A stretch of 29,402 bases of DNA from contig JACQGT010000310.1 of the NCBI GenBank assembly GCA_016199425.1, forward strand, positions 1-29,402, in the 5' to 3' direction. This document shows, piece by piece, positions 5,901 through 21,544 of this stretch. The number at the start of each line of letters is the position of its first letter. Position 1 is the stretch's first letter. A program made the position numbers and the translations under genes. The stretch comes from Chloroflexota bacterium. Its GTDB lineage: Bacteria; Chloroflexota; Anaerolineae; Caldilineales; Caldilineaceae. Below the pieces are notes generated by a model. The model ran no database searches, was not told the origin of the DNA, and saw nothing but the letters and a program-made list of their open reading frames with translations.

Positions 5901-6650
<750 letters not shown>

Positions 6651-6658
6651 GGAGGCGA

Positions 6659-7031
6659 GGGACGCAGATTTGCCTGATCTGTATTGATTTGGGTGTGTTC
6701 AAAATGAGTGATAAGGCGGGGCGTATAGCCGCGGATCAGGGGTGACGCGGATTTGCCTCGCTCTGCGCGGATCAATCCGCGCTGCCTGGAATCCGCGGCT
6801 ATCGTCTCTCCAACTCATTTTGAACACACCCTATTGATTTGTCGCTGAACAGAAGACGAGAACACGGATTGCGGAATTTGCGGATTTGATCTGCGTTCAT
6901 CCGCTGTTTCTGTGTCATCTGCGTCCCGCTTTTGGCGGATTATTGGGAACGGGGCAGTCTGGACGTATGGCTGCCCCACTTTTTGCCACGCCCCAATGAC
7001 AAATCCGCAAATTCTGCCATCTGTGTTCTCG
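6659..7031. repeat. Cluster of nested and crossing inverted repeats of the C(A/G)CGGAT type
   Basis: 11-bp IR 6659-6669 / 6917-6927; 12-bp IR 6725-6736 / 6791-6802; 32-bp IR 6857-6888 / 7000-7031 (29/32); hairpin 6951-6977. Confidence 0.75.
6691..6831. mobile_element. 141-bp MITE-like element with 19-bp TIRs and 9-bp target-site duplication
   Basis: TIR GGGTGTGTTCAAAATGAGT (6691-6709) / ACTCATTTTGAACACACCC (6813-6831); direct repeat TATTGATTT at 6682-6690 and 6832-6840. Confidence 0.85.
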
Positions 7032-7127
7032 CAGGCGGAGGATTTCGACATTCTCTTTCCCCCCGGTACAATGTGTCGGGTATTTTGACGAGTCGCTTGC
7101 CATACTCTATTCTTGCAGGAGTTTTCG

Positions 7128-8957
7128 ATGATCCGTCGCTTTCTGCCCATTTTTGCATCTCTCTTTGTCCTGGCGCTGACCTTCTTTTCTCTGACTGGCG
7201 CTGTGTTTGCCGCTCTCTCTATCCAGGAAAGCCAGCCGATCACAGCAGTCACCATCCCGCCGCGCATGAACGCGCGCACAGGACCGGGGACCGGCTATCC
7301 GGTGGTGGGGTTTGTGGCCGCGGGAACAAAAGTGAAAATCATCGGCGAGAACGCCGACGGCACGTGGGTGCGGGCCGAAATCGACGGCTTCGATGGCCCG
7401 GTCTGGCTGGCAAAGTGGCTGTTGAATGTGGCGGAAGGAAGCGCAGCCGCAGCGCAATCCAGACCGCAATCCAACGCAGCCATATCCCAGACAACGCCCC
7501 TATCCGCGACAGTAGCTTTCTCGACAACGGCGACAGCCGCTTCGGTAACAGAAAAACCGTCCGCACCCGCTGTGGATACCTCTGCCGGGCCGGTAGCGGT
7601 GACGACGCCCGCCCGTATGAATGTGCGCCGGGGGCCGGGGACCGCATATCCCGTGGCGACAAACGCGGCCGCGGGCACCCAGGCCCGCATCCTGGGTATC
7701 GGCCCGGACCGCCAGTGGTATCAGGTGGAGATGGACGGTCAGAGCGACAAACTCTGGATTTTTGCCAGCCTGACCACCACCCACGGCTCGTTGGAGGGCG
7801 TTCCCCAACTGACAGAAGCTGAGATTCCGCCCCGTCCCCAGCCTGTAGCCCAACCTGCACCCCAGGCCGCCGCGCCAGCCGCCGCTCCCGTGGCCCGCGC
7901 CGCGTCCCTGCCTGGCGTGGGATTTGGCTACGGCATCCAGGCGCACATTATCCACACCGGCCAGGAAGGGCTGGCGATGGACAAGACCCGGGAGATGGGC
8001 TTTACGTGGATGAAGCAGCAGATCGAATGGCGCATCTTCGAGTCAAACCCCGGCCAGTACGGCTTCGGCGACATTGGCCCGATCATCGGCGCGGCCGATC
8101 AGCGGGGCATCAACCTGCTCTTCAGCGTTGTCAACGCGCCGGACTGGGCAAGGGGGCCGGGCTTCGACGCCAATGTGGGCGGCCCGCCCGCGGATCCCCA
8201 GACTCTCGCCAACTTCCTGGGCGCGCTGGCCCGTGAATATTGCGGCTCATCGTTGAAAGCTATCGAAGTCTGGAACGAGCAGAATCTCCACTACGAATGG
8301 GGCAACAAACCGCTCAACCCGGCAGAGTATGTGGCCCTTCTGCGTCCGGCCTATGCCAGCATCAAAGCCGCCTGCCCGTCCATCTACGTCATCAGCGGCG
8401 CGCCCACCCCCGCGGGCGACAACGGCACGCTGGCCATGGACGATTTCCGCTATCTGGAAGAGATGTTCAAGCAGGGGGTGGCCCGCTACGTAGACGGCAT
8501 CGGTGCCCATCCCAGCGGCTACAATGTGCCGGCCAACGTCACCTGGCAGGCTGCCTGCGCGGCCATCCAGCAGACGGGCAACAGCTTCAACGGCGCGTGC
8601 GACAATCCCCACCACTCCTGGAGTTTCCGCAGCACAATGGAGGGCTATCGCAACATCGCGGTTGTCTACGGTGCAGGCAATATCCCGATTTGGCCCACGG
8701 AGTTTGGCTGGGCTGCCGGCGGCGCTTATCACCCGGCCTATGCCTACGCCAACGACAACAGCTACGACGAGCAGGCCGCCTGGACGGTAGAAGCCTACCA
8801 GATGATGAGGAATTGGGGCTGGGTGGGGCCTGCCTTCCTCTGGAATCTCAACTTCCGGGTGGTGGCCGACGGCACGGAGAAGGCCCAGTGGGGGATTGTG
8901 CGCAACGACTGGAGTCCGCTGCCAGTGTATGAGGCGTTGCGAGGGATGGGGAAGTAG
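7128..8957 (+). CDS. Secreted protein with two bacterial SH3 domains and a clan GH-A (GH39/GH5-like) glycoside hydrolase domain, 609 aa
   Basis: Signal peptide; two (M)N(A/V)R.GPGT.YPV repeats; Pro/Ala linker; WNEQN acid/base and PTEFGW nucleophile motifs; AGGAG RBS before ATG 7128. Confidence 0.8.
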
Positions 8958-20084: not shown

Positions 20085-21422
20085 ATGACCACAATGACAA
20101 GCCTGCCTGTCGAGGAACGTCTCTGGCAACTATTGCAACACTTGGGCATTGCTAAGGCTCATTTCGCTGGCTGGATGTCTGCGGATTGGACTGGGCTTGT
20201 CACCACCTATCCCGGGGCAGTTGTCTCGCTGACTCTTGCTGGCCCATCGCTGATTGATCCGCTTACAGCGGAGCATCTCGCCTCAAAACTACTGATGTTC
20301 TCTGAGGAGCGGGGGCCCAGGGCAGAGTTAGCACAGAGGGCCGCAGCAGGTGTTCCAGATGCTCGCCTTGTTGTTCTGCGTGATTACTCCATCTTGCCGT
20401 GGGCGGATGTAGCCGCTGACCGTACTGATGAGATGGAGGCCAGCATGATGCCTTTTTTAGCCCAGACGGGTTCTCGCGCCGAGATCAAGAGCCTCTCGTC
20501 TGGCGAGGGAGCAGGAGAAGTGGCCGGAATTTTCTACCGTGTGCGCGGTGCTGGCCCCCCGCTCGTACTCATGCCTCTCTTCCTTGCTCCCTCGCAATGG
20601 GAACCTCTGATACCTCGACTCAGTGAACAGTATTGCACCATTACTTTAAGTGGTCCCGAGTTGGGGATAGCGCCCTTCCTGGAATCACGGGGGAGTGCCC
20701 TGGGATACGTGCAAATGGTGCGGACGCTTCTTGATGAAATTCAGCTTCAACCAGGCGAAACAGTCCTCGAGATCGGCTGTGGCACAGGCGTCATTACTCG
20801 CTGGCTGGCGCAACGCCTTGGGCAAGAGCATCGTGTCGTTGGTATGGACATCAATCCATATCTCTTGCGAGAAGCAAGCATGTATGCCCGACGGGACGGG
20901 CTTGAAGGTGCAATTGAGTTTCGCGAAGGCAACGCCGAAGCCCTGCCGTTTCCGAATAATAGCGTTGATGTCACACTCTCCGTGACGGTCATCGAAGAGG
21001 TGGATGCTACCCAGATGCTGGCTGAAATGTTCCGCGTGACCAAACCTGGGGGGAGGGTAGCAGTCATATCGAGAGCCACCGATATGCCGTTGCTGATGCA
21101 TCTGCCACTCAGCGAAGAATTGAAAGCGAAGGTGCAAAGGCCTGGAGTGATTATGGCGTCGGTAGGGGAACGAGGGTGCGCGGATGCGAGCCTGTACCAA
21201 CGCCTGTACCAGGCGGGTCTCACGAAGGTAAAAATGTTCCCGCAGCTTGCATCTTTCACGGATGCAGACACCCATGTTCTGCCGTTTCTGCAGACCGCTC
21301 TCCTCTCGACATTGAGTCAGGAAGAAGCGCATGAGTGGCGACGTGGCTGTGTCCAAGCGAAGGCGGAAGGCACCTTTTTTATGGCGTGTCCACACCACTG
21401 TGCGGTAGGGACGAAGTCATGA
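20085..21422 (+). CDS. Fusion of a degenerate alpha/beta-hydrolase-like region and a class I SAM methyltransferase, ~445 aa
   Basis: C-terminal VLEIGCGTG, VVGMD, GNAEALPF, VTKPGGRV; N-terminal hydrolase-like segments without GxSxG; start 20085 or 20094. Confidence 0.8.
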   Translation: MTTMTSLPVEERLWQLLQHLGIAKAHFAGWMSADWTGLVTTYPGAVVSLTLAGPSLIDPLTAEHLASKLLMFSEERGPRAELAQRAAAGVPDARLVVLRDYSILPWADVAADRTDEMEASMMPFLAQTGSRAEIKSLSSGEGAGEVAGIFYRVRGAGPPLVLMPLFLAPSQWEPLIPRLSEQYCTITLSGPELGIAPFLESRGSALGYVQMVRTLLDEIQLQPGETVLEIGCGTGVITRWLAQRLGQEHRVVGMDINPYLLREASMYARRDGLEGAIEFREGNAEALPFPNNSVDVTLSVTVIEEVDATQMLAEMFRVTKPGGRVAVISRATDMPLLMHLPLSEELKAKVQRPGVIMASVGERGCADASLYQRLYQAGLTKVKMFPQLASFTDADTHVLPFLQTALLSTLSQEEAHEWRRGCVQAKAEGTFFMACPHHCAVGTKS

Positions 21423-21451
21423 AACGCGGGAGACCGAGAGAACAAAATCAC

Positions 21452-21544
21452 TGGCTTGGGGACGGTACCGAAGGGGCCAAGTTCTGGCTCAGTGTCATCA
21501 TCCACATCCAGACTCCTGACCTCGAAGACATCTTCATTACCTGA
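21452..21544 (+). pseudogene. Short IS256-family transposase remnant
   Basis: Translates WLGDGTEGAKFWLSVI..DLEDIFIT*, resembling the IS256 segment EGAKFWLSVL..L..RGVEDIFIAC. Confidence 0.6.

Follow-up and report, generated by a model that had tools for sequence, protein, structure and literature searches.

The stretch of DNA analysed here (the window, 29,402 nucleotides) is contig C206 of a 690-contig Caldilineaceae metagenome-assembled genome (MAG) that is 74% complete, and the feature under study occupies a spacer between two genes on the plus strand. The upstream gene (5901..6650) encodes an ABC-transporter ATPase (PF00005, 134.5 bits), whose orthologues in five congeners are 83–87% identical. 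Past its stop codon, a hairpin followed by a T run (6951..6979, plus strand, −18.7 kcal/mol) probably serves the ABC operon as its intrinsic terminator and aligns with the terminator hairpins of the congeners G004, G001 and G006. A promoter-like site (7045-7072) then stands ahead of the downstream gene for an SH3-domain protein (7128..8957, plus strand), whose start at ATG 7128 is inferred from the alignment of orthologues and from a GCAGGAG ribosome-binding site. Between stop codon and terminator lie a palindromic repeat of the host, belonging to the GGGACGCAGAT family, and, nested in its left arm and beginning 41 nt after the stop codon, a non-coding 141-bp element (6691..6831) with the anatomy of a MITE. 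In G004, G001 and G006, which have the same gene order and where the conserved promoter and ribosome-binding site of the SH3-domain gene come after the terminator, the spacer from stop codon to terminator measures 35–75 nt, versus ~300 nt here; nearly all of the extra length is host repeat (~119 bp) plus MITE with its duplication (150 bp). These three syntenic congeners lack the whole block of repeat and MITE, while G005 carries a different insert in the orthologous spacer and the downstream sequence of G002 does not align with the one found here. The region contains further repeated structure: two 32-nt inverted arms (6857-6888 and 7000-7031, 91% complementary) bracket the operon terminator, and the arm sequence at 6859-6933 is in turn a repeat module dispersed in many copies through this genome and those of congeners.

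The 141-bp element has perfect terminal inverted repeats (TIRs). The left one, GGGTGTGTTCAAAATGAGT (6691..6709, plus strand), recurs as its exact reverse complement at 6813-6831 (19/19 nt), and when up to three mismatches are allowed the window holds 2 matches to it, versus 0 in 100 shuffles. On either side of the element stands an exact copy of the 9-bp target-site duplication TATTGATTT, at 6682..6690 on the left and at 6832..6840 on the right. An earlier note, made from the letters of the sequence, had described both the 19-bp ends and the duplication, together with a 12-bp inverted repeat in the interior; all three are confirmed, the last of them by the pairing of 6725-6736 with 6791-6802. 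These 12-bp stretches are the outer arms of an imperfect palindrome (6725..6802) that holds CGCGGAT motifs and a 15-mer at 6744-6758, and that is conserved in the copies of this subfamily present in other genomes. If a terminal G is counted, the exact direct repeat at the flanks reaches 10 nt; since the duplication is 9 bp family-wide, this tenth base is either a coincidence or the product of a G/C preference next to the target. The 141 bp carry no transposase gene, their sole internal ORF being a mechanical frame of 42 aa. Folded as single-stranded DNA, the whole MITE forms one long hairpin (−49.4 kcal/mol, z = −10.3), and a search of it against Rfam returned nothing at threshold, with mir-657 as the sole match (25.7 bits, versus a gathering score of 69).

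The host repeat into which the MITE is inserted can be followed on both sides of it. Its left arm (6657..6690, plus strand), which matches the consensus of the repeat family at 27/30 positions in a 30-nt alignment, is interrupted by the MITE, and the remainder (6841..6927, plus strand) resumes at 6841 and ends in ATCTGCGTCCC (6917-6927), the inverted partner of 6659-6669 over 11/11 nt. Repeats of this family are bounded by GGGACGCAGAT and ATCTGCGTCCC and contain several GATC sites; their commonest form is 66–68 bp long with arms of ~30 bp, as at C116:2656, C141:8000 and C189:7377. In this genome the 10-mer GGACGCAGAT, which marks the repeat, is present 206 times, ~21-fold more often than expected. 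Uninterrupted paralogues of the repeat, on contigs C419, C340, C479, C510 and C622, read across the insertion point and hold the 9-mer once, not twice, and deleting the MITE plus one TATTGATTT from the window restores the continuity of the repeat, one extra base aside. Judged by these alignments, the uninterrupted copies would represent a paralogous empty site. In the orthologous spacers of the five congeners no single TATTGATTT is visible, these spacers being too diverged. Searches of metagenome contigs with the reconstructed empty site and with the left flank gave 0 matches each, and the ABC ATPase protein, looked up by exact match, had no record; no same-species empty allele was thereby found. 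Since the MITE is nested in a repeat that lies between stop codon and terminator, transcripts of the ABC operon probably include it in their 3′ UTR as a long hairpin, and it may or may not affect the transcripts that carry it.

The ends of the element define a family. We searched with a degenerate 20-mer of the end, allowing 1 mismatch, and with the reversed pattern as a control. This genome holds 13 matches to the 20-mer; among other genomes it was found in 5/6 congeners and in 11/36 of the sampled genomes of the same family, with up to 32 matches in relatives, and in 0/24 genomes from other families of the class, the reversed pattern having 0 matches in every genome searched. Four copies with both ends stand elsewhere in this assembly: C294:3511-3625 (115 bp, duplication GTTAGATAT), C421:1415-1623 (209 bp, duplication AAAGCAATA), C614:1869-2009 (141 bp, of the same subfamily as the window copy, duplication AATTCAT(T/G)C) and C34:6747-6850 (104 bp, the duplication matching at 7/9 positions). 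The copy on C421 owes part of its length to a second small element nested inside it, an unrelated TIR element of ~100 bp inserted after nt 15 of the left end. Truncated or one-ended copies are found on C124, C675, C542, C365, C683, C630, C423, C283, C641 and C270, and copies that reach contig ends on C328, C640, C668 and C129; the copies classed as one-ended are truncated MITEs or MITEs located at contig ends. The one at C124:6607-6725, which has no right TIR, is flanked by a direct repeat of 15–18 bp (GGTTCAAACTGTATA) and not by a 9-bp duplication. Because copies run into contig ends, the MITE family breaks this assembly, and contigs C328, C640 and C668 break inside its copies.

Counting this genome and its relatives, 29/45 end pairs are flanked by 9-bp duplications with at most one mismatch. 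The earlier note had taken the element for a non-autonomous transposon with TIRs and a genuine target-site duplication, and had suggested looking for further copies with different duplications; those copies exist (the 29 end pairs have distinct 9-bp duplications), and the proposal is supported by a multi-copy family with varied footprints. The family comprises at least five subfamilies of MITEs, 63–295 bp long, which have unrelated hairpin interiors and the same 20-nt ends. The window element belongs to the subfamily with a CGCGGAT interior, with copies in G006, in G004 and on contigs C614 and C542 of this genome. Within this genome the closest copies of the window MITE are only ~73% identical to it, so that nothing here points to a recent burst. 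A much closer relative lies in another species: L043:121-261 (on G006:C196) is 95% identical to the window MITE and occupies another locus, where it has a duplication of its own (AATTCGATT), whereas the adjacent ABC ATPase gene is only 83% identical between this genome and G006. This comparison, made with a single gene, suggests that the master copy may be younger than the split between the two species, and that the element may have been exchanged between them.

The earlier note had also postulated an autonomous element of the DDE type with the same ends, and such an element was found in the congener G005. The IS at L056:301-1968 is 1668 bp long; its ends are identical over 20 nt to those of the MITE family, its 24-nt inverted repeats differ at 1 position and have ...CACACCC at their ends, and it is flanked by a perfect 9-bp duplication, AAATTAGCC. 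This IS begins, at either end, with the 19 nt of the left TIR of the window MITE. The right end of the MITE (6807..6831, minus strand, including the perfect TIR proper at 6813-6831) matches the left end of this IS at 25/25 nt by blastn. The single ORF of the IS (514 aa) matches NCBIfam model NF033572, ISKra4 family transposase, at 296.5 bits (cut-off 205) over profile positions 19-422 of 422; its search against Pfam gave no PF00872 match and only a weak one to UPF0236. Four further full copies of 1674–1686 bp, with ends of the identical type, are present in three other MAGs, and the transposases of the full IS are 57–64% identical, a lower conservation than that of the 20-nt ends. L072 (1686 bp) has the duplication ATATCATTC and L073 (1684 bp) the duplication TATTGATAT. 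The remaining two, L057 and L058, are each 1674 bp long and lie in inverted orientation ~34 kb apart (G011:C10:181203-182876 and 215447-217120), with swapped flanks (AAATGGTTT/AAATCAATA versus AAACCATTT/TATTGATTT), exactly what is expected of an inversion by recombination between copies. One of the two original targets of this pair was TATTGATTT, the same 9-mer that is used in the window.

The genome studied here contains the ends of this IS and not its body. Searches with protein sequences, with family models and by blastn and tblastn returned no cognate transposase in this 74%-complete assembly, where the matches to the IS are confined to ends of 22–25 nt, and no ORF was found within 3.5 kb inward of 17 ends. 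The sole trace of ISKra4 in this genome is a relic at C261:10-363 (L082), an internally deleted transposase in which profile positions 20-97 are joined to 390-421, and its ends are not of the MITE-family type. The same holds for the ends of further ISKra4 transposase loci, taken from G001, G003, G004 and G006. Within the genus the MITE-family ends are found in 6/7 genomes and the cognate IS in G005 only.

The duplications also reveal how targets are chosen. The 29 reconstructed empty sites, from genomes of ~60% G+C, give the consensus S-AAWT-S-AWWT-S: positions 1-3 are A/T in 28–29 of the sites, followed by T at position 4 (20 sites), G/C at position 5 (26 sites), A at position 6 (24 sites) and mostly A/T at positions 7-9, with G/C preferred immediately outside on both sides. 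Promoters play no visible part in this choice, in a strict as in a relaxed test: a promoter match was found at 1/58 junctions, and hexamers like the −35 box show no enrichment at offsets 13-17, where no single offset has them at more than 2/58 junctions. This ISKra4 lineage is thus sequence-targeted at an AT-rich 9-bp site, without promoter homing.

With the family, its partner and its targets in hand, the relationship between the MITE and the host repeat can be considered. The earlier note had observed that the interior 15-mer (6744-6758) is 14/15 identical to 6661-6675, just outside the element, which is correct, and had described the MITE as carrying a copy of the repeat it had landed in, which does not hold: the 15-mer is unchanged in the G006 copy, at another site, and occurs with one to three changes in three copies of G004 that align in the same orientation. 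Since it is present in copies elsewhere and in other species, the 15-mer is inherited within the subfamily, and was in the MITE before this insertion. The same note had supposed that the element might target the repeat, which is supported in part. In favour of that idea, of the ~19 independent insertions counted in this genome, two (those of the window and of C668) are in the palindromic repeat, versus 0.15% of random 50-mers; against it, a match to the AT-rich target is the simpler reason. The two sites are 6 bp apart in the repeat arm and both are AT-rich 9-mers that fit the target logo, for which reason ordinary target preference is sufficient for both insertions.

These observations bear on the alternative that survives best, in which the MITE is a chimera: ISKra4 ends would have captured a diverged host GGGACGCAGAT repeat, and the resulting element would re-insert preferentially into that repeat family. 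We regard this as unlikely, and no less so the homing that goes with it, which would operate via homology or via a shared host factor. The figure of two insertions in ~19 speaks for such a chimera, as do two interior stretches, 6744-6758 and 6762-6776, whose similarity to the repeat consensus is collinear, the second of them matching at 14/15 positions, a score that 0/2000 shuffles equalled. However, the likeness is confined to these two 15-mers, and the first of them matches the local repeat copy at 14/15 and the repeat consensus at ~11/15; outside the MITEs the interior has no good match in this genome (E > 0.9 throughout); of the 29 sites with a clean duplication, the one in the window is alone in lying within the repeat; and the AT-rich logo by itself explains two repeat insertions that sit at different positions, 6 bp from each other. 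If the chimera were real it would tie together two classes of dispersed repeats that are otherwise unrelated, and the identities of 95% and 83% between the species would then reflect its recent horizontal spread.

It is far less probable that the 141-bp unit is what remains of a full IS after internal deletion on the spot, and that it was never mobile as such. The relic on C261, with its different ends, demonstrates that decay of this kind has occurred in this genome, but the interior of the MITE has no similarity to any of four IS bodies past the terminal 25 nt, and near-identical 141-bp units with other duplications occupy other loci in G006 and G004. By the first of these observations the MITE is not a simple internal-deletion derivative of the IS, and by the second it was the short unit itself that spread.

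As to the transposon family, the earlier note had named IS256 among other candidates and had pointed to an IS256 relic at 21452. The superfamily was right, both families being Mutator-like, and the family was wrong. A MITE of the IS256 family, perhaps tied to that relic, would be compatible with a duplication of 8–9 bp and with ends that start with G, and IS256 and ISKra4 transposases do belong to one Mutator-like superfamily (PMC3942029). However, every full-length element found with these ends encodes an NF033572 ISKra4 transposase, and Pfam gives no PF00872 match, by which membership in the IS256 family is refuted, and a search of the whole genome with the PF00872 profile found nothing, so that this alternative retains hardly any credibility. 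The supposed relic finds no confirmation in profile searches: the ORF in question (21335-21544) has no Pfam match even at E ≤ 10 and has no link to the MITE, although its C-terminal peptide may bear some likeness to Mutator-type transposases. Just as implausible is the idea that the 141 bp are an immobile structure, be it a REP-like hairpin, a terminator or a small RNA, with flanking 9-mers that would be due to chance or part of the host repeat. The very stable fold and a 3′ UTR crowded with other palindromic repeats lend this idea some appeal, but it has against it the 29 family members with unrelated 9-bp duplications at unrelated sites, the identity of the ends with those of a transposase-bearing IS, the lack of an Rfam family at threshold (mir-657, at 25.7 versus 69) and the single 9-mer of the uninterrupted host-repeat paralogues.

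We therefore favour, with a probability of about 0.92, the reading that 6691-6831 is a MITE that uses the ends of an ISKra4-family IS and lies within a palindromic repeat of the host, in the 3′ UTR of the ABC operon. For this MITE the following course of events can be proposed. The host repeat inserted first, between the stop codon of the ABC-transporter ATPase gene and the operon terminator, and the MITE then landed on a fitting 9-mer in the left arm of that repeat. An ISKra4-family transposase (a Mutator-like DDE enzyme), supplied in trans, would bind both ends of the MITE and excise or copy it, and staggered cuts 9 bp apart would give rise to the TATTGATTT duplication, the lineage preferring the AT-rich, near-palindromic 9-mer AAWT-S-AWWT with its G/C borders. 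The perfect ends and the perfect duplication suggest that the insertion is fairly recent, a reading tempered by the absence of a cognate transposase from the 74%-complete assembly, by a sole ISKra4 trace with other ends and by the ~73% identity of the closest copies in this genome. Any present mobility here is therefore putative; the missing transposase concerns present activity and leaves the status of the element as a MITE untouched.

These results assign dispersed repeats of uncultured Caldilineaceae to a named transposon family, and they provide ends, a 9-bp footprint and a target logo that are useful for annotating Caldilineaceae MAGs. They also present an ISKra4 lineage that chooses its targets by sequence and does not home to promoters, and document mobile and palindromic repeats nested in one 3′ UTR.

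How does this element compare with known systems? In the classification of Guerillot et al. 2014, ISKra4 (p-MULT 4) and IS256 (p-MULT 1) are members of a prokaryotic Mutator-like superfamily, whose elements have inverted repeats of 18–39 bp that end in C and direct repeats of 8–9 bp (PMC3942029). The partner IS resembles ISKra4 in its single transposase ORF, which passes NF033572, in inverted repeats of 20–24 nt ending in C and in direct repeats of 9 bp; the MITE has the ends and the duplication length of that IS, and Chloroflexi are among the phyla listed for p-MULT 4 (PMC3942029). There are also differences. Thirteen members of the ISKra4 group insert 13–17 bp upstream of sigma-A promoters (PMC3942029), whereas here the target is an AT-rich 9-bp sequence; furthermore, the MITE and the IS have only ~25 nt in common, and these ends are used by many subfamilies whose interiors are unrelated. 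With IS256 the common ground is the Mutator-like DDE superfamily and a duplication of 8–9 bp (PMC3942029), but the partner transposase lacks PF00872 and no IS256 transposase was detected in this genome. The host repeat, as distinct from the MITE, is reminiscent of the GTAG- and CGTC-tagged REP and BIME palindromic repeats (PMC3733652), being an abundant intergenic palindrome with GACG...CGTC at its termini. In contrast to the CGTC-tagged REPs, which have stems of 8–9 bp and loops of 4–5 nt, it is 66–68 bp long with arms of ~30 bp, and we claim no REP/BIME membership for it.

We found no paper in the literature that discusses ISKra4-derived MITEs; the papers listed as mentioning both ISKra4 and MITEs survey resistance genes or take a census of IS elements, and seem to name the two together by coincidence. 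Classical bacterial MITEs, such as the Correia elements of Neisseria and the MITE families of cyanobacteria, are small elements without coding capacity, with TIRs and a target duplication, that fold into hairpins; they are intergenic, often lie within transcripts and far outnumber the parent IS. The window MITE differs from these classical elements in its parent IS family, its 9-bp duplication and its target consensus, and it represents a clean but ordinary addition to a known type of mobile element, with no new mechanism implied.
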